This document shows positions 8,013 through 56,115 of a stretch of DNA of 57,392 bases, one piece after another. Position 1 is the first letter of the stretch, and the number at the start of each line of letters is the position of its first letter. Made by a program: the position numbers and the translations under genes. Below the pieces are notes generated by a model. It made no database searches. It was not told the DNA's origin and saw only the letters and a program-made list of their open reading frames with translations. The DNA comes from Acidobacteriota bacterium. GTDB taxonomy: Bacteria > Acidobacteriota > UBA6911 > RPQK01 > JANQFM01. The stretch covers positions 1 to 57,392 of the forward strand of contig JBFKLX010000005.1 of NCBI GenBank assembly GCA_041630155.1. Reading direction: 5' to 3'.

Positions 8013-8054
8013 GCCGTCGCAACCTTCGGAGTTACGTCGGGCTCTGGAAAACCT

Positions 8055-8084
8055 CGAGAATCACCGGCAAGATCCCGGTTTCAC
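8055..8084 (+). repeat. REP-like intergenic palindrome, copy 1
   Basis: GAGAATCACCGGCAAGATCCCGGTTTTCAC; core TCACCGGCAAGAT. Confidence 0.6.
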
Positions 8085-8096
8085 ACGCACTCCGTT

Positions 8097-16190: not shown

Positions 16191-16328
16191 ACAGCAAGAG
16201 TAGTGCATGAGTGGCAGTGCGTACGACTGCTGAGTTATCCTTGCTCTCTGGAAACTCTGGCTGGACTGGGGCGCCCGAAAGGCGCCGGCCGAGAGTCCGA
16301 CCCTACCCCACATCGAGGTCGCGAGCGA

Positions 16329-21205: not shown

Positions 21206-21339
21206 GCTGTCGATGCGCGACGGCGCACCTTTTGAGAACGGGAAGGCATTTCGGGTCACGGGTTTCCCCACGTGCCCGTATACCGTTACAATGTATGCTT
21301 TTGCGCGGCTTCTTCCACGCAAACTCTGCGAGGTCGCTT

Positions 21340-21708: not shown

Positions 21709-21712
21709 GAGG

Positions 21713-22156: not shown

Positions 22157-22162
22157 CTGCCT

Positions 22163-23803
22163 ATGAAAGCCCCCCTCGAAGCCTCTCGCCTCGAATCTCT
22201 CCTGGAGTCGGCTCGGCTCCTGCACGCTTCCCTGGAACTCCAGCCACTCCTGGAACACCTCCTGCGCACGGTGATGGGCCGGCTGCTGACCAGCAAAGCC
22301 CTGATTGCCGTCTCCGAAGAAGGGGTCTTTCGAATCGCGGCGAGGCGAGGGCTGAGCCAATTGGAGATTGGCGATCCATTCGAAGAAGAGTCGGCCCGCG
22401 CGGCCGGGATCGAACACCTGTTTCCCATCGGACCGCCCAAATCTCCTGCGGGCAAGCTGGGGATCGGCAAAACCGTCCGCCCCCTCGAGAAGGGCGACGA
22501 GGGGTTTCTCCAGGCACTGCTCGGCATCGCGGCCAGCGGCATCCGAAATGCTTCCGCCCACGCCCGGGCCCAGAGCCTCAACGAAAACCTCAACCGGCGA
22601 GTCCAGGACCTCCGCACGCTGCTGGAGCTGGTCCAAGGCCTGACCTCAACTTTGGACCCCAGAGAGATCGCCCATCTGCTGGTCCTGACACTGACGGGCC
22701 GCTGGCTGGTCAGCCGGTACGCTCTGGCCACCTGGAAGGAGAGTCATTCCCCCCTCGTCCTGGGACGGGGCCTGGAGCTGCCGGAATTGGACCTGTTGAA
22801 GAAGGAGGCCGCGTCTCTGCGGGAACCGGTGAAGGTCGCCGCACTGCCCCCCGGCCAATTGAAGTCGTCCCTGGAGGCCAAGCAGGGAGCGGTGATCTTT
22901 CCCCTGGTGTCCAGTCACGGCGTGCTGGGCATCGTGGCGCTGGGCCCCCGCATGCAGAAACTGCCCTTCACGGATGCCGATTTGGAGTTCGGCGCCGGGC
23001 TCGCCGCACAGGCCACCGTCGCTTTCGAAAACTCCTGGCACTTCCACGAAACCGTCGAGAAAAGGAAGATCGAACAGGAGTTGGAGCTGGCCGCGAGCAT
23101 CCAAAAAGATCTGTTCCCCAAGGAGCTGCCCGCCCTCGAGGGCATCGATCTGGCCGCCCGAAGCCTGGCCGCCCGCCAGGTGGGCGGGGACTACTACGAT
23201 GTTCTGAGTTGGGACACCTCGGCCCGAGACCAGCCGCATCTTCTCTGCGTGGCGGACGTCTCGGGAAAAGGCATCCCCGCCTCGCTCCTGATGAGCAACA
23301 TCCAGGCCACCCTCCGGGCTCTGCTCTCCCCCGGTCTCCGGCTGGTGGATCTGGTCACCCGCACCAGCCAGCTGCTCTATGCCACCACGCCTTCCAACAA
23401 GTACGCCACCGCCTTCCTGGCCCTGGTCGACCCCGCCAAGGGCAAAATCACCTACGTCAACGCCGGCCACAACGACGGCCTGCTGCTGCGAGCCAACGGG
23501 GAATTGCTCCGGATGACGTCGACTGGCCCGCCCCTGGGCCTGCTCCCCGCGATTCCGTTCGAGGAAGGGCAAGCCCAGATGCAGCCCGGGGATCTGATCG
23601 CGATTTGCTCCGACGGGGTCGTCGAAGCACAAAACAGGGCAGAAGAAGAGTTCGAGGAGGAGCGCTTCCTGGACTCGCTGCGCTCCGCCAACGGTTCCGG
23701 AGCAAACACCATCATCGACACGGTCTTCCAGGCAGTGCAGCAGTTCGCCGGCGACGCCCCCCAACATGACGACATCACGCTGATGGTGTTACTACGGCAG
23801 TAG
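22163..23803 (+). CDS. Soluble GAF-SpoIIE/PP2C phosphatase (RsbU/RsbP-like)
   Basis: Two GAF-like segments, then GGDYYD, VADVSGKG, NAGHN, SDGVVEA and DDITLM. Confidence 0.92.
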   Translation: MKAPLEASRLESLLESARLLHASLELQPLLEHLLRTVMGRLLTSKALIAVSEEGVFRIAARRGLSQLEIGDPFEEESARAAGIEHLFPIGPPKSPAGKLGIGKTVRPLEKGDEGFLQALLGIAASGIRNASAHARAQSLNENLNRRVQDLRTLLELVQGLTSTLDPREIAHLLVLTLTGRWLVSRYALATWKESHSPLVLGRGLELPELDLLKKEAASLREPVKVAALPPGQLKSSLEAKQGAVIFPLVSSHGVLGIVALGPRMQKLPFTDADLEFGAGLAAQATVAFENSWHFHETVEKRKIEQELELAASIQKDLFPKELPALEGIDLAARSLAARQVGGDYYDVLSWDTSARDQPHLLCVADVSGKGIPASLLMSNIQATLRALLSPGLRLVDLVTRTSQLLYATTPSNKYATAFLALVDPAKGKITYVNAGHNDGLLLRANGELLRMTSTGPPLGLLPAIPFEEGQAQMQPGDLIAICSDGVVEAQNRAEEEFEEERFLDSLRSANGSGANTIIDTVFQAVQQFAGDAPQHDDITLMVLLRQ

Positions 23804-36361: not shown

Positions 36362-38092
36362 TCAGACTGCGAAGCTCGGCGGGATGCGGCGGTGGAAGTC
36401 AGTCGATTCCTGATAGGCTCGAGCCACGAGAAGAGCGGACTCCTCCTGGTAGAGCTTCCCGGTGAAGGTGATGCTGGCGGGCCGCCCCTCGTCGACGAAA
36501 CCATTGGGGACCACGACACACGGATGTCCCGTGAGGTTGGTCATGAGCAGATTGGGATTGCCAAAGCTGGGCGCCACGTAGACATCCACCTCGGCCAAGG
36601 CTGCATCGAGTTGCTGCATCAAGAGCGTTCGCATGCGGTTGGCCTGGATGTAATCGACCGCCGGGACCAATCGGGAGTGGCGGAACACGTTGGGCCAGGC
36701 GTTCTCGATCTGCCGCACCATCAGATCGTCCCGGTTGCTGCGGGTCAATTCGTCGAAGGCGGCCGCCGCTTCCACATTCAGGATGAAGCTCATGGCACTC
36801 ACCGGAAGCTGCTCCGGCAACTCGATTGCCACCAGCTCGAAGCCGAGCTGCTGCAAGTGATCCAGGGCCGCGCGATCCAGCTCGCGCACCTTCTGGGCGG
36901 CTTCCTCTTCGGGCTCCCGGGCAAAGGCTTTCTCGAGGTAGCCCAAGCGGAGTCCCCGGCCTCGACGGGTGCCGTCCCATTTCCACGGAGCACGGCGCAC
37001 CGTCGGGTCGCGATCGTCCGGGCCCTGGATCGCGTCCAGGACGAGGGCGCCATCCTCGACACTCCGGCAGATCGGTCCCAGTTTGTCCATGCTCCAGCTG
37101 AGAGCCATGGCTCCATGGCGGCTCACCCGCCCGAAGGTCGGCCTCAAGCCGGTCACTCCGCAGCGAGTAGCCGGCGAGACGATGGAGCCCCAGGTCTCGG
37201 AGCCGATGGCGAAGCCAACCAGGCCGGCCGCAACCGCCGCGGCCGAACCGGCTGAAGATCCGCTGGAGCCCTGCTCCGGATTCCAGGGGTTGCGGGTCTT
37301 TCCTCCAAACCAGACATCCCCCCAGGCCAGCGCGCCCAGTGTAAGCTTCGCGACGAGCACGGCGCCCGCGGATTCCAGACGCTGAACCACCGTGGCGTCC
37401 TCGTCGATCACCTGGTCCCTGAACGGCATGGCGCCCCAGGTGGTGCGGTATCCTCGCACGGCCAGCAGGTCCTTGGCGCCCCAGGGAATGCCATGCAGCG
37501 GGCCCCGGTAGCGTCCTCGAGCCAGTTCGGCGTCCGCCCGGTCGGCTTGGCGCAAAGCCATTTCTTCGGTGAGCGTGACCACGCAGAAGAGTTCCCGGTC
37601 GTGGCGCTTCAAGCGCTCCAGATACATCTCGGTCAGTTGCCGAGAGGTCACTTGCCGGGTCCGGATCAACTCGGCCAGCTGCGTCACCGGAAGAAAGGCC
37701 AATTTCTCCAGGTTCTCAGGGACGCTGGGCGGCGATTGGGGGCTCGTCCTGGGCGGCTGATCGGGCTCGGATTTCAACTCGACACCCGGTAGAAGCGGAT
37801 CGAAGCGCAGGGCGGGAGGTATTGCGTTGTCCAGAGTGACAGTGCGCAGCTTCTCGTAGTTTTCCAGGGCCTCGTTGACCCCGGAAAGCATCAATGTTCG
37901 CTCTTCATCGGTGAGTTCGAGCCCGATCATCTTGCCGGCTTGTTCCAGCATTTCCACTGTGACTCGAAGGTCTTTCTTTTCCGCCTCCTGCAGCTTGGCC
38001 CACAGGACTCCAGGCAGCAATGTGGCACCCAGGCCCAAGCCGGAGAAGTATTGTATGAACGAACGACGAGCCAATTCCTGACGATCCGACAT
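36362..38092 (-). CDS. Amidase-signature family protein with a Tat-like leader
   Basis: ARRSFI leader; GIPWGAKDL, GSSGSSAGS and IGSETWGSIVSP motifs. Confidence 0.9.
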   Translation of the reverse strand: MSDRQELARRSFIQYFSGLGLGATLLPGVLWAKLQEAEKKDLRVTVEMLEQAGKMIGLELTDEERTLMLSGVNEALENYEKLRTVTLDNAIPPALRFDPLLPGVELKSEPDQPPRTSPQSPPSVPENLEKLAFLPVTQLAELIRTRQVTSRQLTEMYLERLKRHDRELFCVVTLTEEMALRQADRADAELARGRYRGPLHGIPWGAKDLLAVRGYRTTWGAMPFRDQVIDEDATVVQRLESAGAVLVAKLTLGALAWGDVWFGGKTRNPWNPEQGSSGSSAGSAAAVAAGLVGFAIGSETWGSIVSPATRCGVTGLRPTFGRVSRHGAMALSWSMDKLGPICRSVEDGALVLDAIQGPDDRDPTVRRAPWKWDGTRRGRGLRLGYLEKAFAREPEEEAAQKVRELDRAALDHLQQLGFELVAIELPEQLPVSAMSFILNVEAAAAFDELTRSNRDDLMVRQIENAWPNVFRHSRLVPAVDYIQANRMRTLLMQQLDAALAEVDVYVAPSFGNPNLLMTNLTGHPCVVVPNGFVDEGRPASITFTGKLYQEESALLVARAYQESTDFHRRIPPSFAV

Positions 38093-43865: not shown

Positions 43866-44408
43866 TCATCCAGGCTCGCCCGTTTCGACAAAGTTCCTGT
43901 AGCGGCTCAACTGTTCACTGAGTACGTGATCGACCGGCCCCGCCAGCCGCTCCAGCCCGCCCTTCGAGTAACCCGACACTCGATAAGTCAACTCCACCCG
44001 GGCTCCACCCTCGTCGATCGGCAGGAAGACCACGCTCATGGCACCGTCCAATCCCAGCTCCTGGAGGGGGCCCAAGCCGCCGAGCATGCGGATCCCCTTG
44101 CCAGGGTCGACGAACACCACGGTGAGATGACGCACCTCGGAGCCGGCAGGGGTGCGCTCACAAAAGCAGCCTTGGGCCTCGGGTTGGATCGAGAGGTACT
44201 CAGAAGTCCCGAAGAAGGTATGGTCGGGATGCCACCAAGAGCTCACTTTGCCGACAAAAATCTGGTAGGCCCGGTCCGGGGTTGCGGAGACCTCGACTGT
44301 ACTGCGAACGGAGAAGCCCTGTGGCGCCACATCCAGGACTTCCGCCCTCGACCCGGTTCCAAGCATACAGAGCACCGCGACCCAAGGGGTGATTCTGAAC
44401 AGATTCAT
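43866..44408 (-). CDS. Exported SRPBCC/START-fold protein
   Basis: Signal peptide, SSWWHPDHTF, GCFCE, GGLGPLQELG and PVDHVLSEQLSRY. Confidence 0.75.
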   Translation of the reverse strand: MNLFRITPWVAVLCMLGTGSRAEVLDVAPQGFSVRSTVEVSATPDRAYQIFVGKVSSWWHPDHTFFGTSEYLSIQPEAQGCFCERTPAGSEVRHLTVVFVDPGKGIRMLGGLGPLQELGLDGAMSVVFLPIDEGGARVELTYRVSGYSKGGLERLAGPVDHVLSEQLSRYRNFVETGEPG

Positions 44409-44540
44409 TGACGCTTTCCTCCGCACCGGACTGTCAACAAGTTTACAGACGCGTGGCTGATACGGAAAGCCCGTGCCAAACTGGGGCGGCGCTCTTTGCT
44501 CGCAAGTGTGGCGGGCGGTCCCTTCGGCGCTCGGCGGCCC

Positions 44541-45437
44541 TCAATCGTAAAGCAGTTTCAGGAGCCGTCGGGCCAGGTTGGCCATGAACTCGACGGACAT
44601 CTCGAAGTGGTCTTCCAGGATGTCCAGGAAGGACTCGATGCGAATCTCGAGGATGGTGCTCTGCCTGGAGGCCTCGAGCTCGTACCAGCGGAGCCGGGAG
44701 GAGAGCGCTTCTTCCAACCCCACCAGGGCCGGTGGGCGAATCGGTGACTGCCGGGTCTGACTTCGCTGCAACAGCTCACCCGCTGTCAACAGGAGAAAAT
44801 GTTCGGCGTCGGACCCCATGGTCCACAGCTGTCGTCCGGCCTCGAGTTCCCGCGTGCGCGCATGCCGGCACACTTCCCCCAGGGCGTCGAGACTGCAGTT
44901 CTGAAACTCCGAAAGTGTGGCCAGTAGGCCGAGTTTGTCGACCAGATCGAGTCTCGCACCAAAGATTGGGTGGGTCGGTGCCTGCCTTTCCCGGGGAGCT
45001 GCGGCCTGGTCGATCACACTGATGGTCAGCGACAGCAGGTAGCGGAAATAGCTGGCCAGGATGTCGAAATGGCTCTCCCATAAGTCCAACTGGCTCTCAC
45101 CCGGGAACTCCAGCGCGAGTGTTTCCGTCTCGGCCCGGGCGGTCAAACCTTGCCCCCCCCGGGCGACCAGGTGCAAAAATCCCACCGTCTCTTCGGGGCC
45201 CAGGCGCTGAGGTTGCCCGCTCCCCCTTTGGACTTCCACTATGCCGTCCACGACGACGTAAAACGATTCCACTGGGACGCCGCTGCGGAAGAGATACTCC
45301 CCACTGGCAAAGGTGCGTTCCTTGGCGTGCCGAGCGATGCTGGCCAGGTGATCCGAGCTCAAGCCCTGGGCGGCGGGGAGGCTGCGGAGGTAAAGCACCC
45401 GCTCCAGCGGCCCGACGAACAGCACTTTATCGCGCAC
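44541..45437 (-). CDS. Tandem cyclic-nucleotide-binding (cNMP) domain protein with no DNA-binding domain
   Basis: Two repeats (LERVLYLRSLP...GEYLFRSG...FYVVVDG and VDKLGLLATL...GRQLWTMG...FLLLTAG). GTG 45437 has a GGAGG RBS and overlaps the upstream stop codon. Confidence 0.85.
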   Translation of the reverse strand: MRDKVLFVGPLERVLYLRSLPAAQGLSSDHLASIARHAKERTFASGEYLFRSGVPVESFYVVVDGIVEVQRGSGQPQRLGPEETVGFLHLVARGGQGLTARAETETLALEFPGESQLDLWESHFDILASYFRYLLSLTISVIDQAAAPRERQAPTHPIFGARLDLVDKLGLLATLSEFQNCSLDALGEVCRHARTRELEAGRQLWTMGSDAEHFLLLTAGELLQRSQTRQSPIRPPALVGLEEALSSRLRWYELEASRQSTILEIRIESFLDILEDHFEMSVEFMANLARRLLKLLYD

Positions 45438-48153
45438 CCTGACCCTCCATTCGCGAATTGGAGTCGGGCAAGTCTCCTTGGATGACCAGCGCCAAAGCCG
45501 TGGAGGCGCCACGCAGTCGCCGGCGCAAGAGGCGCTCCCAGCCTGGAATCTCCAGGTGGGCCAGCTGTCGAGCGGCCAGACAGCTCAGCATTTCTGAGGG
45601 ACTCTCCAGCAGGACCTCCAGCACCTCGCCATATTCCTCCGAGGAAGCGACACCATCTCGAAGGGTCGAATCGTCGAACAGTTCCAGGAGGGCTCCGGCC
45701 AGTGTCTTGGGGACCAGATACTCCAGCAACTCTCGACTGCCGGCCCGTGAGCTCTCCTGTTCACTCCGGAGACCCGCATAGACTTTGCGGAAGTCTTCGC
45801 TGGCATAGAGCAGGTTGAGCAACCGGAAGATCCGCTCCAGGGCGTGAATCTGCTTGTGCCGGAGCAGGTCCGCCAGGATGTCGTGAACCGAGCCGGCCCG
45901 GAGATGCAAATCGGGAGGGATGGATCCCAGTTGCCGGCGCCACTGCGAGTACGCCACGGCAGAACCGAGATTCTCGTCCAACACGAGTTGCAGAGGCTCA
46001 GCCGGAAGTTCCAGGCGGGGGTAGTCCTTGCGCAGCGCACCCAGCGCGCGCAGGATCTTGAAACGGATCATCCCGTCGCTCTCGCCCTGCAAATGTTCGA
46101 TCAGGATCTCTGCAGCGACGGTGGGTTCGAACCGCCTGACCACGGCGGGAACATGGCAACGGATGCCGTGGGGCACCTCTGGATTGCGCAGCGCGGAGTC
46201 CAGTTGGGACACGACAGCGGGGCGCAGGGCCAACAGGGCCTCGGTGACCGGGCCACGCAGCCGCCGAGTCCCCAGGAACATCAAGAGCGGCTCGAACAGC
46301 TGGGCCGTCCCCACGGCCCGCATCGCGCGGACCAGTTCGAGTGGCGCCGAGCCGCCGAGCTGGCTGCGGCACATCAGGGCCAGCAGAGGTCCAAACTCCC
46401 GCAGGGGTCGGGCCCGGATTGCTCGGGCCATGGCGCCAATGGCAGGGGACGAGTTCAAGAACCCCTGTCTCTCCACCTCTCGGAGTTGCCGGGCCGAGGG
46501 AAGGCCGTCTCTGGCGATGATTCCCACCAGCGCAGTGGCTCGAACCGCCGGAGAAGCATCTCGCCGTGCCCGGTCGAGAACTGCCTGGCTCCCTCCCCCT
46601 TCTCTCATCACGAGCGCCTGCACGGCCGCCGCGCGAATCGCCTCGTGCTCGTGCTCCACGAGGCGTTCGATTGCCGGCAGCACGTCCTCTTTGGGGTCGA
46701 CGCCCAGCAACTCCAGGGCGCGCAAAACGACGCGGGGAGCAGGATGGTAGAGGATCAGAGCCGGAATGCGCGACTCCTGACGCAATTCGTGAAGCATTTC
46801 CAGGGCCGCCAGGACTCTCCGATCGTCGGGATGATTCAGCGCCTGCAGCAGCCGGGTGAGCGATGCGGTGTCCAAGGCAGGGAAATCGATTCGCGCCTGC
46901 GAGACCTCGGACGTCAGAATTTCCCGAAAAACGCCCAGATAATGCTGCTTGACACCTGGTACCAGCAACAGCCACAGCAGTGCGGAGGCCAGGGTAAACG
47001 CGAGGAAGGTCTGTTCATCGGCGCCCACCCGAAGAGCCCCAAGAATCAGCAGCGACGCAAGGCTCTGCCCACCCCGCTGACCCAACACGTCGATCACGCC
47101 CTTGACCTGGCCTCGCACTTTTTCGGGTAGGGGAACGAAAAGCAGTTCCGTGAGCGTTCGGTGGAAGGAGTGGCGCAGCGACCCGTCGACTGCCTTGAGC
47201 GACAGGGCAGCCAGCAGTCCGCCGGCAGCCCAGAAGCCGGCACAGCCCATCAACAGCAGCCCGGGCACCACGCCCTGGCTGGCATGCACCCCCAGACGAG
47301 GCAAGAGCCGCGGCGCCACTATCAGTTGCACCAGTAAAGACGACAGGTTCAGTGCCAGATAGACGCTGGAAAAGAACTGGTCCAACTGTGCGGCTGGAAC
47401 GAATCGGTCGGCCGCACTCTTGAACAGAAAGTCCACCAGGGTGAAGGTGACCGTGGACAGGAGGATCAGGAGCCCCAGACGCCGCAAATACGGACCCGCC
47501 CAGACCTTTCGCAGCACGGCCCTCAGCTCCTCCTGGCTCCCCTCCTCCGGGGGATCCATGACCGGGCTGTTCAGATGCATGATGCGCGGGAGGGGTGCTG
47601 AGAGCAGGAGCAAGCCGGCGGACGCCAGCAGCAAATGCCGGGCGGGGAGGTAGGTGGCCAGAACCACCGCCACGAAAGACCCCAGAATCGCTCCCACGAC
47701 GCTGCCGGTGCCGATCAGCGCAAACACGTGCTTGGCCCGAGTCAGGTTGAACAAGCCACCCAGCAGAGTCCAAAATCGGACGCCCACCAAGGTCACCAGG
47801 ACACCCGACCAGACGTAGAGTGCGTAGTACACCCAGGGCCCGACCCGACCGACCATCAGCCAGAACAGCAGCGTCACCAGGCCACTGGCACTCAACCAGA
47901 GGGAAAGCTCGTTCCGGGCTGCGAACAGGACGACCAGGCGCCGGTGATATCGAGTCAGCAGCAGGGAGATCAGCGCAATGGCCAGATAGACCCAGGGAAG
48001 TTCGCTGGCGGGAAGACGAGACAAGAAGAGGCTGTCGCGGGCGGTCTCGAGAAGAGCGTGCCCCGCCATGAAGCCACCCAGGGTCAGAAAAGCTCCGGCG
48101 ACGTTGCGCTTCTCGTCTCGACTCAGATCCCAACGCCAGAAGAACACTTTCAC
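45427..48153 (-). CDS. NTT/TLC (Npt1/Npt2-like) nucleotide translocase fused to HEAT repeats
   Basis: About 12 TMs with ETARDSLFLS, FWTL...AKHVFALIG, TLVDFLFK, DGSLRHSFHRTLTELLFVPLP and KGVIDVLGQRGG, followed by ~450 aa of HEAT-like helices; probable start GTG 48153. Confidence 0.82.
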   Translation of the reverse strand: MKVFFWRWDLSRDEKRNVAGAFLTLGGFMAGHALLETARDSLFLSRLPASELPWVYLAIALISLLLTRYHRRLVVLFAARNELSLWLSASGLVTLLFWLMVGRVGPWVYYALYVWSGVLVTLVGVRFWTLLGGLFNLTRAKHVFALIGTGSVVGAILGSFVAVVLATYLPARHLLLASAGLLLLSAPLPRIMHLNSPVMDPPEEGSQEELRAVLRKVWAGPYLRRLGLLILLSTVTFTLVDFLFKSAADRFVPAAQLDQFFSSVYLALNLSSLLVQLIVAPRLLPRLGVHASQGVVPGLLLMGCAGFWAAGGLLAALSLKAVDGSLRHSFHRTLTELLFVPLPEKVRGQVKGVIDVLGQRGGQSLASLLILGALRVGADEQTFLAFTLASALLWLLLVPGVKQHYLGVFREILTSEVSQARIDFPALDTASLTRLLQALNHPDDRRVLAALEMLHELRQESRIPALILYHPAPRVVLRALELLGVDPKEDVLPAIERLVEHEHEAIRAAAVQALVMREGGGSQAVLDRARRDASPAVRATALVGIIARDGLPSARQLREVERQGFLNSSPAIGAMARAIRARPLREFGPLLALMCRSQLGGSAPLELVRAMRAVGTAQLFEPLLMFLGTRRLRGPVTEALLALRPAVVSQLDSALRNPEVPHGIRCHVPAVVRRFEPTVAAEILIEHLQGESDGMIRFKILRALGALRKDYPRLELPAEPLQLVLDENLGSAVAYSQWRRQLGSIPPDLHLRAGSVHDILADLLRHKQIHALERIFRLLNLLYASEDFRKVYAGLRSEQESSRAGSRELLEYLVPKTLAGALLELFDDSTLRDGVASSEEYGEVLEVLLESPSEMLSCLAARQLAHLEIPGWERLLRRRLRGASTALALVIQGDLPDSNSRMEGQGAR

Positions 48154-48171
48154 CAACGTGCTCCGCCCTTG

Positions 48172-48229
48172 ACAGTAGCATAGTTGCCTGAGCCAACCAG
48201 CTTGGCTGCAGAGCACTCTCTGCTAAAAT
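48172..48229. promoter_or_regulatory. Possible divergent extended -10 promoters
   Basis: TGcTAAAAT (+, 48221-48229) and TGcTACTGT (-, 48172-48180) in the 124-bp spacer between the divergent genes. Confidence 0.35.
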
Positions 48230-48277: not shown

Positions 48278-51232
48278 ATGACTCACTCACACCGGAATTC
48301 ACATCGCACCCGTGCTGCTGCGGCTTTCGCCTTGCTAGTCGCAATCTTCATGCTGTCCGGCCGGGACGCCGCCGCCGCAATCGTGCCACGTTCCTTGTCG
48401 GCGGCCGAGGTGAGAGAGGTGCGGCAGACCCTCGAAAGCATGAAACTGGACCCCCGAGGGCCCTATCTTCGCATTCGCTGGTTTTGCAGGGACGGCACGG
48501 TTCAACCACCCGCCGGCACCCCGTGCCGGGAGCGCGGAGGCGGGGTCCAACACGCTGAGGTGAGCCCCAAAACGCAACGCCTGGCCGAATTGGGTTTTCA
48601 GGTGGGTACGATCCTCCAGGCCCTGGATTTCGATCAGTTCTTCGACCGGGACAACGATCACCGACTGCTCAAACAGCTGGTCCTGCAGGACTATCTCGGG
48701 CAAGTCGACGATGGATGGGTTCTTCGCGAAGCTCGCTTCTACAGAGGAGCTCGACAGATCGAGGACGAGGAGAGGCAAGGCGAAGCATTCCTGCGTCAGC
48801 TCCTGGCCCAGCCCGATTGGGTCGACCGGAATTTCCTGCTGGTGTTTCAACTGGCCGCGACTCTACCCCAACCGGACTGGACCGCGGGAAGCACCGAACG
48901 AGTTCGCAATCTGGCCACGGAGATCGCCAATCTGGACCCCAACTTTCAGAATCTCCGCAGCAAGATTCACTCCTTTCCCGAAGCCACGGACATCGAGCGT
49001 GTACGGGCCTTCCTGAATTCGAAGTCTCACCCGGCCGAGACGGGTGGCCGCTTGCGGGAGCTGGTGGCAACCATGGAGAAGCAGTACGACCCCGCTCGGG
49101 TCGTGGAACTGATTCGCCGGTCGGCCAGACGCCTGCCACAGCTCGAACAGCCCTTGACCGCCTTGATCGACCAGCTAGAGAAGGGCCGGCACCGCGAGGC
49201 CTTTCTGGGCATGGCCCGACTGGCGGAGGGATTGAGACGGCAAATTGCCTCCGAGGCCCTTGATCGAGACAATCTGCACCGCCTCAACCTGCTTCGGGTC
49301 CTGCTGGAAACGGCGTTTGGACTACCCGGGGAAGACTCGAAGCGGGCCCGGGAGACTCGACTCGCCCGCATCGAAGTCTGTGGGCCGTACTTTCAATTGG
49401 CGTTCGCGGCCGGTCTGCTCACGGATCGCGAGCTGCAGGCGCAGCGCCAGGAACTCACGGAGATTCGAGAGAAGGCGCCGGCTTTGCCGGCTCTCGAACT
49501 CAGACAACACCTGGCCTATCTCAGCCGGAGCCTCGACTGGGGGCAGGCTTCCATTCGCCAGACCTTCGGCCCCGAGTTCGACCACTTCCTACGGGTCGAG
49601 CCCAAAGTCTCCGGCTTCATGGACTCTCGCGTTCGGGGCTCGATCCTGCTGCCGCTTTCGGAGGTGCTCAGCAGCCTGACCCAGGACGTGGACGAGTCTT
49701 TGAACCAGTCTCATGTTCTTTGGGACCAGCCCATCAGCCACGGCTTGCGCGGCCTCAATCCAGGAGTGGCTCGAGCAGAGCTCTCCTTGGCGCACCAGAT
49801 CGACGAGCCGGACCCCACCAAGATCTACGTGATTCCCGACACAGTGGCGGACCTGCGGCCCATGGCCGGCATCCTGACCCTGGACGCTGGAAATTTGCTG
49901 TCCCACTCGCAACTGCTGGCACGCAACCTGGGCATTCCGAACGCCTCGGTCTCCCCCGCTTTGCTGCCCAGTCTGAAAGCACTGGAGGGCCGCCAGCTTT
50001 TTTACGCAGTCTCGCCGCTGGGGCGGGTGGTCATCAGAGACCCCGGCAGACTGGAAGGCTTCGAAAAGGAGTTGATCGCGAACATCACGCGAAACGCTCC
50101 GGCGAAAATCGACCTGGACATCTCCAGGGTCCAACTGCAGCGGGTCGAGCCTTTGCCGCTGAAACAGCTGCGGCTCTCGGATTCGGGGGTAGTGGTGGGT
50201 CCCAAGGCCGCCAACCTGGGCCAACTGGGAGCGCTCTTCCCTCGTCAGGTCGCCGAAGGCGTAGCGCTCCCCTTCGGGATGTTTCACCGTCACATCGACC
50301 GCCCTTACGAGGGGAAACAGAAGCTCACCGAAGAGATCCGAGCAGCTTACGATACTTCCCGCCGGATGGCAGAGGCCGGGCGAAGCCAGGTTGAGATCGA
50401 CCGCTTCATGTTCAACCGCCTCGATTACTTCCGAAGGGCAATCCTCGAGCTGCCTTGGCTTCCCGATCTTCGCGCAATGGTGGAAAGAGCGGTCCGCAAC
50501 CTGCCCGATTACCAAAAAGGTGTGTTCGTGCGCAGCGATACCAACGCCGAAGACCTGCCGCACTTTTCGGGAGCCGGCCTGAACTTGACCCTGCCACACC
50601 GCAAGAACATGGAGTCGATCCTCGGCGGGATCAAGAGGGTATGGGCATCGCCGTTCAGCGAGAGGGCCTATCTGTGGAGGAGGGAGATCCTGAACTCGCA
50701 GGAAAAAATCTTTTGCTCCGTACTCCTGTTGCGCAGCGTTCCCAGCGCCGAGTCGGGAGTGCTGATCACCGCCGGCCTGGAGGCCGGGGAGGCCGACAGC
50801 CTCACTGTCGTCACGGCGGAAGGGGTGGGTGGAGCGGTCGACGGCCAGAGCGCTGAAACCCTGTCGATCCTGCCGTCGGGTGAGACCAAACTGCTCTCTT
50901 CCGCCAAGGCCCCTTATCGAAGAGGGCTCAGCGAAACCAGCGAGGGCGTCGAGATCCTGCCGGCCCGGAGAGACCAGTACCTCCTGAACGAGGCCAAGAT
51001 CCAGCAGCTCCAACGGGCCGTCCAGCGTTGGATGGCAACCCTCTCGGCTCAGCAACGCGGCCTGGTTTGGGACATCGAGTTCGGCTTCGTGGACGGCAAG
51101 CTCTGGCTCTTTCAAATCAGGCCTTTCGTCGGACACCTCAACACACGTATCATGGAGGTTTTGCGGGAGTACGATCGCGACCTGCTCGAGGCGGGTCAGC
51201 GAAAAATCTCCCTGGAGGAACCTTCTTCTTGA
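48278..51232 (+). CDS. Signal-peptide-bearing dikinase-like protein: helical N-domain, phospho-His swivel domain, C-terminal PPDK-type ATP-grasp
   Basis: Leader RTRAAAAFALLVAIFMLSGRDAAA; TLDAGNLLSHSQLLARNLGIP; GPKAANLGQL, FVRSDTNAEDLPHFSGAGLN and DIEFGFVDGKLWLFQIRP; no PEP/pyruvate TIM barrel. Confidence 0.85.
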   Translation: MTHSHRNSHRTRAAAAFALLVAIFMLSGRDAAAAIVPRSLSAAEVREVRQTLESMKLDPRGPYLRIRWFCRDGTVQPPAGTPCRERGGGVQHAEVSPKTQRLAELGFQVGTILQALDFDQFFDRDNDHRLLKQLVLQDYLGQVDDGWVLREARFYRGARQIEDEERQGEAFLRQLLAQPDWVDRNFLLVFQLAATLPQPDWTAGSTERVRNLATEIANLDPNFQNLRSKIHSFPEATDIERVRAFLNSKSHPAETGGRLRELVATMEKQYDPARVVELIRRSARRLPQLEQPLTALIDQLEKGRHREAFLGMARLAEGLRRQIASEALDRDNLHRLNLLRVLLETAFGLPGEDSKRARETRLARIEVCGPYFQLAFAAGLLTDRELQAQRQELTEIREKAPALPALELRQHLAYLSRSLDWGQASIRQTFGPEFDHFLRVEPKVSGFMDSRVRGSILLPLSEVLSSLTQDVDESLNQSHVLWDQPISHGLRGLNPGVARAELSLAHQIDEPDPTKIYVIPDTVADLRPMAGILTLDAGNLLSHSQLLARNLGIPNASVSPALLPSLKALEGRQLFYAVSPLGRVVIRDPGRLEGFEKELIANITRNAPAKIDLDISRVQLQRVEPLPLKQLRLSDSGVVVGPKAANLGQLGALFPRQVAEGVALPFGMFHRHIDRPYEGKQKLTEEIRAAYDTSRRMAEAGRSQVEIDRFMFNRLDYFRRAILELPWLPDLRAMVERAVRNLPDYQKGVFVRSDTNAEDLPHFSGAGLNLTLPHRKNMESILGGIKRVWASPFSERAYLWRREILNSQEKIFCSVLLLRSVPSAESGVLITAGLEAGEADSLTVVTAEGVGGAVDGQSAETLSILPSGETKLLSSAKAPYRRGLSETSEGVEILPARRDQYLLNEAKIQQLQRAVQRWMATLSAQQRGLVWDIEFGFVDGKLWLFQIRPFVGHLNTRIMEVLREYDRDLLEAGQRKISLEEPSS

Positions 51233-52518
51233 TGTGCGTGCGCACCTTCATTCGATCGATTCTGCTGCTGGGGATGTTCGTCTCGGTCACTGCTGCCCTC
51301 CCCGGGTATCCGCTGGACGGATACGTACACACGGGCATCCGCCGCCTCAAGGCCTACGACCTCATCCAGCAAGGCAAGCTGGCCGGGCATTTCCGCCTCC
51401 AGCCGGGCGCTCTGCTGGGCAGCGACCGGATCCTGCTGCGCCTGGCCGACACCAATCCCGATTTCGACATCTCGCCGGCCTCCCAGCCCGACCCAAACCT
51501 GCAGTCGGCCTTGGACAAGTTGTTTCAGTCGCGTGACCAGTCCTATCGGGCGGCGGTGCTGGACATCACCGATCCTGCTCAACCGCGCTACGCTCAAATC
51601 CGGGGCGACCAAGGCTACATTCCCGGCAGCGTGGGGAAGCTGTTGGTCATGACGGGGTTGTTCGAGCAGCTGCGCCTCCGTCATCCCGGTGAGATCGAAA
51701 GCCGGGAAAGGCTCCTTCGCGAGACCCAGATCGTAGCGGACCGATTCGTCATTCCCAACAGCCATGCGGTCCCGGTGGTGGGTCCCGACTTCACCTCCAT
51801 CGTGCATCGCTCGATTCAGATCGGGGATCGCTTCAGCCTGTGGGAGTGGCTCGATCACATGATCTCCCCCAGCTCCAATGCCGCCGCGTCCATGGTGTGG
51901 AAGCAGGCCCTTCTGATGGACGCTTTCGAAGCGGGATACCCGATCAGCCCGGAGAGAGAAGCCGCCTATCTGGCCAGCACGCCTGGCCAGCAGCTCAGCG
52001 AACGTGCCATCGAAGTGATTGAGACTCCTCTCCGGAGGGCCGGCCTCGATCCGGAGAGCTTCCGTGTGAGAACGTTCTTCACGGCGACTGCTTCACGAGC
52101 CATTCCCGGAAAATCGAGCACCTGCACCCCGAACCAAATCCTGCGCTGGTTGATCAAGCTGGAACAGGGCCGGCTGGTCGACCGCTGGAGCAGTCTCGAG
52201 ATGAAGAAGCTCATCTACTTCACTCGCCGCCGCTACCGTTACGCCTCCGCCCCGGCACTCAACCGCGCCGCTGTCTTCTTCAAATCGGGCTCCCTCTATC
52301 GCTGCGCCCCCGAGGAAGGCTACAAATGCGTCCAGTACCAGGGCAATGTGGAGAACTTGATGCATTCGGTCGCCATCGTGGAGTCTCCGCGAGAGAATGC
52401 GCCTCCCCTGGTCTATTTGGTCTCAATCATGTCGAACGTGCTCAAAGTGAATTCCGCTCAGGAGCACCAACGACTCGGTGCCGAGATCGAGCGTCTGATC
52501 CAGCAGCGGAATTCTTAG
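51232..52518 (+). CDS. Exported class-A beta-lactamase-fold serine hydrolase
   Basis: TGATG overlap with the dikinase; signal peptide; SxxK (GSVGK), SxN (SSN) and KSG motifs. Confidence 0.82.
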   Translation: MCVRTFIRSILLLGMFVSVTAALPGYPLDGYVHTGIRRLKAYDLIQQGKLAGHFRLQPGALLGSDRILLRLADTNPDFDISPASQPDPNLQSALDKLFQSRDQSYRAAVLDITDPAQPRYAQIRGDQGYIPGSVGKLLVMTGLFEQLRLRHPGEIESRERLLRETQIVADRFVIPNSHAVPVVGPDFTSIVHRSIQIGDRFSLWEWLDHMISPSSNAAASMVWKQALLMDAFEAGYPISPEREAAYLASTPGQQLSERAIEVIETPLRRAGLDPESFRVRTFFTATASRAIPGKSSTCTPNQILRWLIKLEQGRLVDRWSSLEMKKLIYFTRRRYRYASAPALNRAAVFFKSGSLYRCAPEEGYKCVQYQGNVENLMHSVAIVESPRENAPPLVYLVSIMSNVLKVNSAQEHQRLGAEIERLIQQRNS

Positions 52519-52543
52519 AAATTTGAGGTCGAAAAGCATTCCT

Positions 52544-53500
52544 ATGAAATCATTCCTTGTCCTCACTTTGCTTCTGTCTTGCCTCGTCGCTTTTGCGCCG
52601 GCAGGGCCAGCCCAATCGTCCCCGTCCCGTTCTCTGGTGCTTCCGCCTCCGGACCCCGAGCTGCAGGCGGGCCTGGATGCAGCTCTGGACCAGCCGCCGT
52701 TTCGCAAGTTGATCCGGCAGGGACGCCTCTCGGTGGCGCTGGTGGATTTGTCCAATGGCGAACTGAGGTTTTCCGGAGTCGACCAGGACAAGATGCGCTA
52801 CGCCGCCAGCCTGCCCAAGATTGCCGTGCTGCTGGCGGTCTTCGAGGAAATCGATGCGGGAAGACTGGAATACACTCCGCAGCTGCAGAAGAGCCTCGCG
52901 CGGATGATCCGATTTTCGAGCAACCGGGCGGCCAGCGATCTCATCGCTTTGGTCGGCTTTGAGAGGATCGCTGAGATCCTCCGCGATCCCGCCTACGAGC
53001 TGTACGACCCCCGGCGCAAGGGCGGCCTCTGGGTCGGCAAGGACTACGGGGGGAGTCTGGGCCGCTGGAAGCGTGATCCGCTGAACCAGATTTCGCACGG
53101 GGCGACCGCGCGCCAGGTGGCTCGCTTCCTGGTCATGCTGGAGGAGGGATTGCTCGTCAGCCCCCGAGCCAGTCAGCAGATGAAGGAAATCATGTCCCAG
53201 CCGGGGATCCGTCACAAGTTCGTCAAAGGACTGGCCTCCCGGCCGGATGCCAAGATTTTCCGAAAATCCGGATCTTGGAGGGATTGGCATTCGGATGCCG
53301 CCATCGTGGAGGCGAAAGGGCGCAAGTATGTGGCTGTGGCCCTGATGGAGAGCTCTGCAAAGAATGTCCTCTCACGCCTCATCGTGGCGTTGGACGACCT
53401 GATCCAGGCCGAAAACCAGGAACAGTTGGCCGCCTCTGGCGAGAAGCAGCCGGCCGTGGATCTGCTGGCTCCCAAGGTGGCCGCCTCGCCGATTCCTTGA
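52544..53500 (+). CDS. Exported class-A beta-lactamase-fold serine hydrolase
   Basis: Signal peptide MKSFLVLTLLLSCLVAFAPA; SxxK (ASLPK), SxN (SSN) and KSG motifs. Confidence 0.85.
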   Translation: MKSFLVLTLLLSCLVAFAPAGPAQSSPSRSLVLPPPDPELQAGLDAALDQPPFRKLIRQGRLSVALVDLSNGELRFSGVDQDKMRYAASLPKIAVLLAVFEEIDAGRLEYTPQLQKSLARMIRFSSNRAASDLIALVGFERIAEILRDPAYELYDPRRKGGLWVGKDYGGSLGRWKRDPLNQISHGATARQVARFLVMLEEGLLVSPRASQQMKEIMSQPGIRHKFVKGLASRPDAKIFRKSGSWRDWHSDAAIVEAKGRKYVAVALMESSAKNVLSRLIVALDDLIQAENQEQLAASGEKQPAVDLLAPKVAASPIP

Positions 53501-53566: not shown

Positions 53567-54838
53567 CTACGACCAGCGCTCCGTCAAGTACGGTTTTTCG
53601 GTTTCGAAACCGTCGCAGAGCTGTTCGATCAACTTTTCGGCTTCATAGGTCGGCATATCTCGGGTCTCTCGTACGAAGGAGCCGGTCCGTCCAAAGTAGA
53701 GAGGCACCATGGAGAGCATGACGCGATCCAGCGTCTCCTGCGACTTGTCGGATCGATGGTACGCCAGGGCGTAGTCCCAGACTACGCGGATCCAGGTTTG
53801 GCCTGGAAAGTCGAATCTCGAGGTGGGAAGCTTCGCAATTGCGGCCAGTTCCCTGAGTCGCTCAGCGGGCAGGAACGAGCCCAGGAACTCGCGATTCTCC
53901 TGAAACCCGGCCCGGAATCGTGCGACCATCGCCTCCAGGTCGACTCGAATCTCCTCCGGATACACTTCCGACCGGAAGCCGAAGAGCGCCGTGGGGCGAC
54001 TCTGCTCCACCCGTTGCCACTTGTCCTGGTAGCGCTCCATGAGGCGAAACATGGTTCCGATGACTTGCTGGAACATCGGGCCCAGCGAATGGGAAGGATC
54101 TTTGGCGTCATGAATCTTGGCGCCGAGGAAGGCTTGACAGATCCGGTAGCCCTCGCAGATAGCCTTGGTGCTCATCCAGATGTCGATGCCGTAGCGAGCG
54201 ATATCGGTACCCCAGATGTCGCGGGACAGGTAATGCTCGGCCAGTGCTCCGGAAAAGCCGAAGTCGCCTCCAATCGGCTGGCGCATCCGGACACCATAGA
54301 GCGATCGAGTGACCGGATAAATGATGCTGTTGGTGATGGTGCCGTCGTATTTGTAGCGAGAATACCAGGGCGCCACGAAATCATAGCCCTTGAGCAGGAT
54401 CGGGCCGGCCAGCAGCTCCACCCATTCGGGTGTGATGCTGCGAAGATCCGAGTCCACGACCAGGCAGGCTTTGGCGCCAAGGCGGACGGCCACTTCGAAG
54501 ATCGTGTGAAAGGCGCTCCCCTTCCCGGGCATGCCATGATAGGGGGTGACCAGCTTCTGAGCGGGGCGCACTTCGTGCTGGATCAGAATCGTATCCATGT
54601 CCCCGTAGACCGCCGTCCCTTCGACAATGTGCCTGGTCTGGTCGGTGGAGCCGCCATCGGAGTTGACCAGCACGGCCTTTTGTCGAGGAAAATACTTGGC
54701 CAGTCCGTACTCCACGGCCCGAACCACGTGCCGGATCGTCACCTCGTTGTTGAAGCTGGGTATACCGACGACGATGTCGGCGGTCGTGATCTGCTCGACT
54801 TTGAGCTGCGTTTCGTGTGAAAGCACCGTTTCTTGCAT
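53567..54838 (-). CDS. GT-A glycosyltransferase, glucosylglycerate/mannosylglycerate synthase-like
   Basis: VGIPSFNNE, NSDGGSTD, PGKGSA, VDSDLRSI, RQPIGGDFG and YGIDIWMS motifs; start moved to ATG 54838. Confidence 0.8.
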   Translation of the reverse strand: MQETVLSHETQLKVEQITTADIVVGIPSFNNEVTIRHVVRAVEYGLAKYFPRQKAVLVNSDGGSTDQTRHIVEGTAVYGDMDTILIQHEVRPAQKLVTPYHGMPGKGSAFHTIFEVAVRLGAKACLVVDSDLRSITPEWVELLAGPILLKGYDFVAPWYSRYKYDGTITNSIIYPVTRSLYGVRMRQPIGGDFGFSGALAEHYLSRDIWGTDIARYGIDIWMSTKAICEGYRICQAFLGAKIHDAKDPSHSLGPMFQQVIGTMFRLMERYQDKWQRVEQSRPTALFGFRSEVYPEEIRVDLEAMVARFRAGFQENREFLGSFLPAERLRELAAIAKLPTSRFDFPGQTWIRVVWDYALAYHRSDKSQETLDRVMLSMVPLYFGRTGSFVRETRDMPTYEAEKLIEQLCDGFETEKPYLTERWS

Positions 54839-54879
54839 GATTTTATGACTGTCTGGAGGAGCCCCTGACGATCTCTCCC

Positions 54880-56115
54880 TCAACCGAGTGAACGGGCGGC
54901 AATCCAACTCCCGGCCAGGAAAGTGCCCAGGACGCTGCCGATGTTTGAAAATGCCACGACGAGCAGGATGCGGCTGGCCGGATTGCTCCAAAAGCCTTTC
55001 ACGTTGGTGATGGCTTCCGGGAGCGCCTCCAGATCGTCCACTGTGGGCTTCTTGACGAACGCCTGAACCAGGCCGCTCACCCAACCGGCCGCCATCAGTG
55101 GGTTCAGGCTGGTCAGCGGGGCCGCCAGGAAAGCCGAGAGCACGCTGAGTGGGTGGCCCCACGCCAGGGCGGCTCCCAGGGCACTCAACGAGCCGTTGAC
55201 GGCGAACCAGATCCAGATGGATCGGATCGACTCCTCCGCACCCCGGGTGAAGAATCCGTACACCAACAGGCCTACGATCAGAACCGGAATACCCCACTGC
55301 AGGAGCTTGGGGAAGAACGCCGATTGGGGCAGGGCCTCCAGAGGCTCCAGCGGATGGTCGCGGAAGATGGCCTCTCGAATGCCGGCCACGTGCGCGGCGC
55401 CGACCGGGGCGACGATCTTCCCGCCTTCGGCCTGGCGCAGCTTTTGAGCCATGTAGACGTCACGCTCAACCACCAGTGTTTCTTTCAAGGCTGGAAACTC
55501 GACGGCCAGCATCTGCAGAGCGTCCTGGATGTTCTGGTGCTGCTTCAATTCCTCGATGATGCGTTCGTCGACCTCTTCGTCAATGAAGAGGCTTCCGAGC
55601 AGATGGAACACCATGCGCAGTTTGTCTTTCCAACCCAGGCGTCTCCAAGCTCGTTTCAGTGTGGTCTGAATGTCCCGATCCAGCAGCTCCAAGCGCATGT
55701 CGTTGGCCTCGGCCAGCCGAATCGCTTCCGCCATTTCGGCACCCGGCCGCACCCCCAGACGATCCCCGATGCGCCGCTGGAACGACGACATGATCAGCGA
55801 GGCCAGGAGCAGGAGCGCCTTGCCCTCCCGCACCACCTTGACGACATCCGTTTTCTTCCACTCCCGGGCGCGCTTCAGGTTGACGTAACGTGCCTGGCAC
55901 AGCTCCACACACACCGTGTCGGGCCGGACCGCCTCGATCACGCGCGCGACCTCATCGACACTCTTTTGAGAAACGTGGGCAGTGCCGACCAGATAGACCT
56001 CTTTGCCCCCCAGCCGAATCAGCTGCACCGAATCGGGCAGTTCGGGCAAATCGCTTGCCGGCTCGGAGACTGGACTGGCCATCTCGGGGCGATCGTCCGG
56101 AGGACTGTGTGACAT
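54880..56115 (-). CDS. TraB/PrgY/GumN-family membrane protein
   Basis: LVGTAHVS, PDTVCVELC, RPGAEM, ERDVYMA and VGAAHV motifs, plus C-terminal TMs. Confidence 0.92.
   Translation of the reverse strand: MSHSPPDDRPEMASPVSEPASDLPELPDSVQLIRLGGKEVYLVGTAHVSQKSVDEVARVIEAVRPDTVCVELCQARYVNLKRAREWKKTDVVKVVREGKALLLLASLIMSSFQRRIGDRLGVRPGAEMAEAIRLAEANDMRLELLDRDIQTTLKRAWRRLGWKDKLRMVFHLLGSLFIDEEVDERIIEELKQHQNIQDALQMLAVEFPALKETLVVERDVYMAQKLRQAEGGKIVAPVGAAHVAGIREAIFRDHPLEPLEALPQSAFFPKLLQWGIPVLIVGLLVYGFFTRGAEESIRSIWIWFAVNGSLSALGAALAWGHPLSVLSAFLAAPLTSLNPLMAAGWVSGLVQAFVKKPTVDDLEALPEAITNVKGFWSNPASRILLVVAFSNIGSVLGTFLAGSWIAARSLG

Follow-up and report, generated by a model that had tools for sequence, protein, structure and literature searches.

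A putative periplasmic dikinase of the glucan-water-dikinase type, encoded with penicillin-binding-protein-like partners and often near a nucleotide carrier

Introduction

Can a bacterium use ATP to phosphorylate something outside its cytoplasmic membrane? The Gram-negative periplasm is treated in textbooks as free of ATP, and the envelope phosphorylations that we know of draw on lipid-linked or other non-nucleotide donors. The question is raised by a gene in a 57,392-nucleotide stretch of DNA from an Acidobacteriota bacterium (GenBank assembly GCA_041630155.1, contig JBFKLX010000005.1, positions 1 to 57,392 of the forward strand; hereafter the window). The product of this gene, here called DK, had been described in an initial annotation, made from the sequence alone, as an exported dikinase with the domain order of plant glucan water dikinases (GWDs). 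In following up that description we found that DK represents a large, unnamed and widespread family, a variant of the GWD-type dikinase of which we found no earlier description. We favor, at a probability of about 0.55, the interpretation that DK is a periplasmic GWD-type dikinase paired with an exported protein, B1, in a module that also contains a second exported protein, B2, and in which nucleotide is possibly supplied by a carrier of the NTT family. The three partners, which were absent from the initial annotation, are the most informative part of the context of DK.

Results

DK has the features of a histidine-swivel dikinase

DK is encoded by a single long open reading frame (ORF) on the forward strand, which ends at position 51232 and begins at either a GTG (48233) or an ATG (48278). 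The gene, its parts and a candidate promoter are as follows.

48278 to 51232, + strand: DK gene, 984 amino acids plus stop (TGA, 51230 to 51232)
48202 to 48229, + strand: sigma-70-like promoter match, TTGGCT-16-TAAAAT with a TG extension, upstream of the DK ATG
48278 to 48379, + strand: predicted Sec-type signal peptide, residues 1-34, with a basic n-region, the h-region AAAAFALLVAIFML and AAAA before IVP; the cleavage position is putative
48383 to 49711, + strand: helical N-domain, residues 36-478, a candidate acceptor-binding "central" domain, with the Cys70/Cys83 hairpin at 48485 to 48526
49712 to 50047, + strand: phosphohistidine swivel domain, residues 479-590, with the predicted catalytic His543 (CAC, 49904 to 49906)
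50183 to 51127, + strand: PPDK_N-type ATP-grasp domain, residues 636-950, with K643, R752, T771, E934 and Q946

In alignment, homologues of DK start at the position equivalent to the ATG. The promoter match is the sole one between positions 44000 and 54000, and since chance alone would give 0.8 matches in that interval it counts as weak; a genuine promoter here would set the start of the transcript after the GTG and favor the ATG as the start codon.

Searches of Pfam placed a PPDK_N domain (PF01326) at residues 639-950 of DK (E 8.7e-25; 88 bits against a cut-off of 27) and the mobile domain of phosphoenolpyruvate (PEP) utilizers (PF00391) at residues 520-554 (E 0.0076; 16.3 bits, below the cut-off of 23.1). 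Among 31 members of the family scanned in the same manner, PPDK_N was present in all 31 and the PEP-utilizers domain, weakly, in 29. Pfam detected no PEP/pyruvate-binding barrel in DK or in any of the 31 members, no match to the carbohydrate-binding modules CBM45 or CBM20 in DK or these relatives, and no match of the window DK to GWD1_pHisD (PF22973) at E values up to 0.1. In a full-length AlphaFold2 model of DK (pLDDT 85.5, pTM 0.84), residues 479-590 adopt a beta-rich fold. For the phosphohistidine domain, then, the profile evidence is weak, and motif and position argue strongly for the assignment. The full-length model matched, in Foldseek, only ATP-grasp relatives, namely PEP synthase (2ols), rifampin phosphotransferase (RPH; 5hv1-5hv6) and HpeI (9goj), at E values of ~1e-11 to 1e-12, with RPH-Lm (PDB 5FBS/5HV1) and HpeI as the best solved ATP-grasp matches.

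The residues expected to handle nucleotide and phosphate are conserved in the family members that we aligned. In an alignment of 31 DK sequences (alignment A1), C70, C83, G87-G89, H543 and the ATP-grasp motifs are invariant; in particular, H543 lies within GNLLSH.QLLARNLGIPN, and the other invariant motifs are GPKAANLG, (V/I)RSDTN.EDL, F.GAGLN.T, WD.E and Q.RPF. According to the accessible part of PMC4844700, mutagenesis of RPH-Lm identified Lys22, Arg117, Thr136, Glu297 and His825 as important. In phmmer alignments Arg117 corresponds to R752 of DK, Thr136 to T771, Glu297 to E934 and His825 to H543, and all four are identical in DK and invariant in 31 of 31 sequences; the counterpart of Lys22 is probably K643 in GPKAANLG, as judged from hidden Markov model coordinates. 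With its ATP-grasp domain, His domain and phosphate-handling residues, DK has the sequence features expected of the histidine-swivel dikinase superfamily, which comprises PEP synthase, pyruvate phosphate dikinase (PPDK), RPH and GWD.

Within this superfamily, identification of DK as PEP synthase or PPDK can be rejected: DK shares with these enzymes the PF01326 ATP-grasp and, weakly, the PF00391 mobile His domain, but lacks the PEP/pyruvate TIM barrel, has the reverse domain order and falls far below the NCBIfam cut-offs. Indeed, NCBIfam gave only partial matches to the ATP-grasp domain, in models of PEP synthase, RPH and PigC/RedH, all far under their cut-offs; PEP-synthase models reached at most 94 bits against cut-offs of 598-1063 bits, and the RPH model NF041857 aligned to the ATP-grasp alone, at 70.3 bits against a cut-off of 999. 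We likewise rejected the identification of DK as RPH. Although a swivel mechanism that delivers a beta-phosphate to a hydroxyl would be expected of both enzymes, RPH is cytoplasmic and has the order ATP-grasp, rifampin (RIF)-binding domain, His (PMC4844700), whereas DK has a different order and no RIF-binding domain. The claims of the initial annotation about enzyme class held up well. It had placed the codon of the swivel histidine at 49904-49906, exactly where CAC is found; it had put the His domain ahead of a C-terminal ATP-grasp, an order borne out by Pfam; and it had seen no pyruvate-binding barrel and had excluded a PEP synthase, in agreement with the missing barrel in DK and in 31 of 31 members, the reversed order and an NCBIfam score of 94 against 883 bits. 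Its statement that PPDK, PEP synthase and RPH put the ATP-grasp first agrees with what is accessible of PMC4844700, and its statement that a His domain before the ATP-grasp is the plant GWD order agrees with the corresponding part of PMC13553574.

DK is predicted to be exported

We defined a leader by an N-terminal hydrophobic core with a Kyte-Doolittle value of at least 1.9 over 11 residues, and we applied this definition to 81 loci including the window, minus two that are cut at the 5' end. All 79 analyzable DK homologues, which span at least seven phyla, carry an export leader in which a few basic residues precede a hydrophobic core (10-16 residues), with a small-x-small site after it; a lipobox-like Cys is present in one of the 79. 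Just past the leader, residues 36-54 are conserved and modeled as a confident helix, which indicates that they are coding. Cys70 (TGC, 48485-48487) and Cys83 (TGC, 48524-48526), one on each side of a beta hairpin, do not vary in either DK alignment. Taken together, the leader, the small-x-small sites, residues 36-54 and the Cys pair favor Sec-dependent export followed by cleavage, and they disfavor both a start at Met55 and an N-in anchor that would leave the enzyme in the cytoplasm. DK is therefore most likely an exported, periplasmic protein.

The N-domain is a probable counterpart of the glucan water dikinase central domain

When modeled alone (AlphaFold2, 44 homologues), the N-domain gave a pLDDT of 93.4 and a pTM of 0.90 and consisted of ~23 helices and a single beta hairpin, which carries the Cys pair. 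A Foldseek search of the N-domain against solved structures, akin to the comparison with GWD and RPH that the initial annotation had proposed, returned generic helix bundles only (best E 0.064), and a profile of the domain found no match among PDB sequences. (Note that the GWD entries 9HA9 and 9QVI of the PDB are absent from the structure match lists; the library extends to 2026-04-08 and may lack both entries.) In the ESM Atlas the best score was 0.84, to unnamed clusters (17-26% with PEP-utilizers), which we regard as a lead only.

More distant relatives were found among longer bacterial proteins. A length-restricted search with a profile of the C-terminal 700 amino acids yielded five bacterial proteins and no plant GWD. 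Two of these, P0277 (1712 amino acids) and P0278 (2067 amino acids, from Omnitrophica), carry GWD1_pHisD and a C-terminal PPDK_N domain according to Pfam. In hhalign, the N-domain profile aligned with P0277 at a probability of 87.9% (E 3.3e-6, 252 columns), against 0.14% for a HEAT-domain control; residues 178-444 of the N-domain pair with residues 829-1133 of P0277, so that the alignment ends exactly before the phosphohistidine domain of P0277, which starts at 1134. The motif LR.KIH..P...D...VR is common to both, and the first third of the N-domain (the hairpin and DDGW...YYRGARQIEDEE) lies outside this best alignment. Judged from the alignment with this bacterial GWD-like protein, the N-domain is probably the counterpart of a GWD-type central domain. 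Both P0277 and P0278 begin with signal-peptide-like N-termini, which suggests that exported GWD-like dikinases occur in other architectures too.

The layout of DK resembles that of the plant enzymes. In GWD the order is CBM45-CBM45-central domain-His-ATP domain, and the potato enzyme StGWD1 has an all-helical central domain at residues 483-926 (444 residues), a 4-residue loop, a His domain at 931-1050 and an ATP domain at 1069-1387, as given in the accessible part of PMC13553574. StGWD1 without its CBM45 modules and DK (36-478, 479-590 and 636-950) have matching order and near-equal sizes, and DK shares with GWD1 and phosphoglucan water dikinase (PWD) (EC 2.7.9.4 and 2.7.9.5) a helical region of ~445 amino acids, a short link, a phosphohistidine domain and a C-terminal PPDK_N. 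By analogy, the chemistry would be shared as well: ATP, acceptor and water would give AMP, phospho-acceptor and inorganic phosphate (Pi). Unlike GWD1 and PWD, DK has no CBM45 or CBM20, carries a Sec leader, contains a Cys pair of the disulfide type, and occurs in bacteria, which have no plastid starch, together with dedicated partners resembling penicillin-binding proteins (PBPs) and NTTs.

The description of the N-terminal half in the initial annotation is sustained in most respects. The Sec-like leader that it saw is conserved in 79 of 79 analyzable homologues, its Cys pair near the N-terminus is present as the invariant Cys70 and Cys83, and a true start downstream of the leader, named there as grounds for abandoning the prediction, is disfavored by the conserved leaders and residues 36-54. 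Of its ~480 amino acids of novel helical sequence, the helical character and the lack of a solved match stand, but the domain is nearer 445 amino acids (residues 36-478) and has probable GWD-type relatives.

The DK family is large and widespread

A word-indexed protein search with DK returned 3372 matches. The best 120 of these are nearly all 960-1030 amino acids long and 45-62% identical over 89-100% of the query, and where they have names at all these are "hypothetical" or "PEP/pyruvate-binding domain-containing". At least 574 stretches in a scan of one genome per species encode a DK relative. The best 80 of these stretches (loci L001-L080) come from Acidobacteriota, Gemmatimonadota, Thermodesulfobacteriota, Gamma- and Betaproteobacteria, Bacteroidota, Spirochaetota and Myxococcota; cultured, non-pathogenic carriers include Flavobacteriaceae (Lacinutrix, Formosa and Winogradskyella), Parahaliea and Agaribacterium. 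The N-domain profile matched 853 clusters at 50% identity among 1.84 billion representatives, and in all of the best 150 relatives the domain begins within the first 79 residues, right after the leader. A look for expression data found eight sequencing runs from four studies; all are DNA from marine or sediment metagenomes, with no RNA run among them. Our search of the literature, supplements not covered, turned up no description of such a dikinase, whether exported or periplasmic.

A FastTree phylogeny of 79 DK sequences largely follows phyla, with nine label changes against a minimum of six. Bacteroidota form one clade (support 100), rows of Acidobacteriota and Gemmatimonadota interleave, a small number of rows fall in the wrong place, and the window groups with an Acidobacteriota row. 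In a sample of 301 genomes of the window's own phylum (the phylum sample), solid DK matches were present in nine, eight of them strong and one divergent (genome G031), and one further genome had a marginal match at E 6e-4.

DK is encoded with two exported PBP-like proteins

To describe the neighborhoods we clustered de novo all ORFs of at least 90 amino acids in the 80 loci and the window. Four real families recur around DK, itself included: DK, B1, B2 and NTT; the other recurrent clusters are opposite-strand shadow ORFs. Of the 44 fully flanked loci, those with at least 8 kb on both sides, 41 have B1 within 10 kb of DK, 36 have B2 and 34 have NTT; 30 hold the complete set of four genes. In the window, B1 and B2 are as follows.

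51232 to 52518, + strand: B1, exported 428-amino-acid divergent beta-lactamase/PBP-fold protein (predicted) with SVGK, SxSxN, KSG and a Cys pair
52523 to 53500, + strand: B2, exported 325-amino-acid PBP-A/class-A-beta-lactamase-like protein (predicted) with SLPK, SSN and KSG

B1 lies directly downstream of DK in 76 of the 80 loci as detected by tblastn; of the four loci where it was missed, three break off at the end of a contig. The ATG of B1 in the window overlaps the stop codon of DK (TGATG) and lies 12 nt past a Shine-Dalgarno sequence, GGAGGA (51214-51219); among 70 loci in which an ATG was found, the junction is an overlap of 1-4 nt in 35 and a gap of 0-20 nt in 21. In the phylum sample, B1 (E <=1e-20) is present in nine genomes, comprising all eight strong-DK genomes, where it is on the DK contig, and one fragment at the start of a contig. 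B2 (E <=1e-30) is present in seven of the eight strong-DK genomes and in three DK-negative genomes of one family. This co-occurrence in the 301 genomes is why we regard DK, B1 and B2 as a specific set. DK and B1 in particular appear to form an obligate pair in which B1 is predicted to be co-translated.

Members of the B1 family are ~420 amino acids long, and the Pfam domain Beta-lactamase2 (PF13354) covers only part of them; B2 family members are ~310 amino acids long. PF13354 scores 35.9 bits in B1 and 82.8 bits in B2, against a cut-off of 22. In 40 B1 sequences G-S-V-G-K, S.S.N and K-S-G are invariant, as is a Cys pair of B1's own, and 56 of 57 B1 sequences have a leader that ends at an invariant YP(L/I)D. 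In 26 B2 sequences S50/K53, S86/N88 and K202-S203-G204 are invariant, and B2 also carries a leader. The closest solved relative of B2 is PBP-A Tll2115 (E 0.0014), whereas B1 matched no solved structure by sequence or profile. Both proteins retain the SxxK, SxN and KSG motifs of PBP-A (Tll2115, PDB 2J7V) and the class A beta-lactamases, but both are very divergent from these enzymes: the NCBIfam model bla_class_A gave B2 20.7 bits against a cut-off of 200 and did not match B1. B1 differs further in being ~130 amino acids longer, in its invariant mature N-terminus YP(L/I)D and in its own Cys pair.

A few B1 and B2 sequences are irregular. There is an in-frame stop within the B1/B2 tblastn match in loci L041 (3536-4762) and L005 (5986-6813), and P0130 is an apparent read-through product of DK and B1; such copies are possibly pseudogenes, or errors of assembly or gene calling in metagenome bins. 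We also considered natural fusions of B1. Nine longer proteins were found; the three inspected look miscalled or frameshifted, and we do not take these three for Rosetta-stone fusions.

NTT-family nucleotide carriers often lie near DK

In the window, two genes are oriented divergently from DK.

45427 to 48216, - strand: NTT/TLC-family nucleotide carrier fused to HEAT repeats, 929 amino acids, divergent from DK
44541 to 45512, - strand: protein with two cyclic-nucleotide-binding domains (cNBDs), directly downstream of the NTT-HEAT gene

By sequence, the DK-linked carriers are true NTTs. The window carrier matches PF03219 (TLC) at 27 bits against a cut-off of 21, nine of ten DK-linked carriers exceed that cut-off, and a profile built from such carriers aligns over the whole membrane domain with two solved ADP,ATP carriers, 9j3n (E 1.1e-36, positions 13-430) and 9j3j. 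The DK-linked NTTs occur in a short form (26) and in a form fused to HEAT repeats (22), and B2 adjoins NTT in 33 of the 45 loci that hold both. A cNBD gene adjoins DK in only two of the 80 other loci. An NTT-HEAT gene followed by a cNBD gene is a widespread arrangement without an assigned function in the accessible part of PMC5381601 (Major et al. 2017), and the window has exactly this arrangement; that part of the paper, unlike the loci described here, mentions no dikinase or PBP-like gene. In our search of the literature, supplements not covered, we found no function for NTT-HEAT.

Another stretch of the window's own genome (L086; genome G000, contig C60, 4000-20000) contains two further NTT genes in tandem, at 4227-7145 (- strand) and 7725-9050 (- strand), of which only one has HEAT repeats. 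Their neighbors are Exo_endo_phos, Omp85-like, Metallophos and DUF547 genes, and no dikinase gene is among them. This tandem cluster may be a separate nucleotide-related envelope module.

Other genes in the window

Downstream of B2, at 53567-56115 (- strand), are a gene weakly resembling GT2 family and glucosyl-3-phosphoglycerate synthase (GpgS) genes and a TraB-family gene (TIGR00261, E 1e-103), and at 43866-44426 (- strand) is a 186-amino-acid ORF whose N-terminus resembles a signal peptide and which neither Pfam nor NCBIfam recognizes. Each of these three genes was matched in 0 of the 80 loci, and we rejected all three as parts of the module. Further away, three consecutive genes at 15522-23800 (+ strand) encode proteins of 1105, 789 and 546 amino acids that end in SpoIIE/PP2C phosphatase domains, the last with a GAF domain. 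A DUF5117/DUF4953 Met-zincin protein (445-3228, + strand) and two amidase-signature genes (8097-9737 and 36362-38092, both - strand) look like ordinary context.

Discussion

The domain architecture of DK, its conserved catalytic residues, the leaders of its homologues and the linkage of its gene to those of its partners can be read directly from alignments and gene maps. The sequence of events that we propose goes further. ATP or another nucleoside triphosphate (NTP) would reach the periplasm through NTT, which would be the simplest way to supply nucleotide to a compartment generally described as lacking ATP; for an exchanger with high ATP inside and none outside, efflux would be favored. The ATP-grasp would pyrophosphorylate His543, with the gamma-phosphate passing to water, and the swivel domain would carry the phosphate to the helical N-domain. 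There the beta-phosphate would pass to an envelope or periplasmic acceptor held by the N-domain, with release of AMP and Pi, and B1 and B2 would act on the same substrate. Export rather than import would set the DK-linked carrier apart from known NTTs.

Several observations weigh against this proposal. The most general is that export itself, ATP as the donor, transfer of the beta-phosphate, what the carrier moves and in which direction, and the nature of the acceptor are all points that we infer from sequence. The His domain of the window DK falls under the Pfam cut-off; GWD1_pHisD, for which the window DK shows no match, is matched weakly by five of 31 relatives (best E 0.0014), a difference from GWD1 and PWD; and the N-domain aligned with P0278 at an hhalign probability of only 7%, reaching residues 83-177. 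Genome G031, whose DK match is the divergent one among the nine solid matches, lacks a match to B1 and has no NTT at E <=1e-20. AMP, the expected product of DK, is not known to be an NTT substrate. As for the neighborhood, NTT is missing from the 10 kb around DK in 10 of the 44 fully flanked loci, and among the matches listed an NTT adjoining DK could be placed in two (G000 and G008) of the eight strong-DK genomes in the phylum sample. The NTT family evidently serves other purposes too, and what appears to tie it to DK is gene neighborhood.

These points bear most directly on the possibility that DK is an exported dikinase paired with B1 for which NTT is not the supplier, the carrier instead importing nucleotides (recapture of AMP or ADP, or scavenging) or serving another process, with leaked ATP or another NTP as the donor. 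NTTs were found in 134 of the 301 genomes in the phylum sample (a tally that includes the unpublished genome G054), against nine solid DK matches; they are present in eight of the nine solid-DK genomes but also in ~126 of the 292 others, a distribution far wider than that of DK. The two further NTT paralogues of the window's own genome (L086) have phosphoesterase-type neighbors (Exo_endo_phos and Metallophos genes) and no DK beside them, an arrangement that nucleotide uptake fits as well as export, and the NTTs characterized in the accessible part of PMC5381601 are all importers. In addition, the leaders of the GWD-like proteins P0277 and P0278 point to exported dikinases in other contexts. 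Nevertheless, 34 of the 44 fully flanked loci, in several phyla, have an NTT gene no more than 10 kb from DK, in varied order and orientation, a pattern that suggests a functional link and is hard to explain otherwise. Moreover, in each of the five genomes checked where no NTT adjoins DK, an NTT is encoded elsewhere (E 1e-115 to 1e-123), in one of the five beside B2. On balance we regard a carrier unrelated to the supply of DK as possible but unlikely. A further alternative, in which DK works in reverse, making periplasmic ATP from AMP, Pi and a phosphorylated environmental compound, with NTT importing the ATP, seems extremely improbable. PPDK-type chemistry is reversible in principle, and ATP import is what NTTs are known for (PMC5381601, as far as accessible); however, the reverse reaction needs a donor with a PEP-like transfer potential, DK has no PEP-binding barrel, and on thermodynamic grounds ordinary phosphoesters would be insufficient to drive ATP synthesis.

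Two other alternatives concern what DK acts on and where. DK, B1 and B2 could constitute a periplasmic cassette for inactivating antibiotics or xenobiotics, in which DK phosphorylates a hydroxylated compound in the manner of RPH or the phenol-type dikinases, and the beta-lactamase-fold enzymes hydrolyze that compound or its relatives. The nearest solved ATP-grasp relatives do include RPH (5hv1) and HpeI (9goj), the SxxK, SxN and KSG motifs known from beta-lactamases and PBPs are retained in B1 and B2, and the module is as patchy as accessory traits are, being found in nine of 301 genomes. We nonetheless consider such a cassette clearly unlikely: DK has no RIF-binding domain and scores 70 against 999 bits with the RPH model, the class A beta-lactamase model gives 20.7 against 200 bits for B2 and nothing for B1, no mobile-element genes were noted in the annotated stretches of the window, and the DK tree, which mostly follows phyla (nine label changes against a minimum of six), does not look like that of a resistance gene in rapid spread. 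It is very improbable, finally, that DK stays inside the cell, with the hydrophobic N-terminus as a membrane anchor for cytoplasmic catalysis or with a start downstream of it. Export is predicted from sequence features, and Met55 is in frame and nearly invariant; however, the basic residues before the short h-region put the C-terminal bulk outside, all 79 leaders have small-x-small sites, residues 36-54 are conserved and form a confident helix in the model, DK and B1 both have invariant Cys pairs, and the partners B1 and B2 also have leaders.

If DK is indeed a periplasmic GWD-type dikinase, starch offers an analogy for its purpose. Phosphorylation by GWD loosens the insoluble polymer for hydrolases and precedes amylolysis, which makes an envelope polymer such as peptidoglycan an attractive acceptor. 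One could picture an economy of "lumenal ATP" in which NTT, gated on the cytoplasmic side by its HEAT and cyclic-nucleotide-binding parts, exports ATP for DK, and DK phosphorylates an insoluble envelope polymer (the glycan strands of peptidoglycan or another periplasmic glycan) and so opens it to both PBP-like hydrolases. Drawn from analogy, this fuller scheme is speculative and, taken whole, rather unlikely.

What distinguishes the DK family is that every ATP-handling residue is under selection, yet a leader is present in all 79 analyzable members from at least seven phyla. Should our interpretation be correct, ATP-driven chemistry would take place outside the cytoplasmic membrane, the widespread NTT and NTT-HEAT proteins of free-living bacteria that are without a function would acquire a role, and a bacterial counterpart of the core of the plant starch dikinase would be defined. 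With cultured carriers at hand, the DK family makes the use of ATP in the periplasm directly testable.

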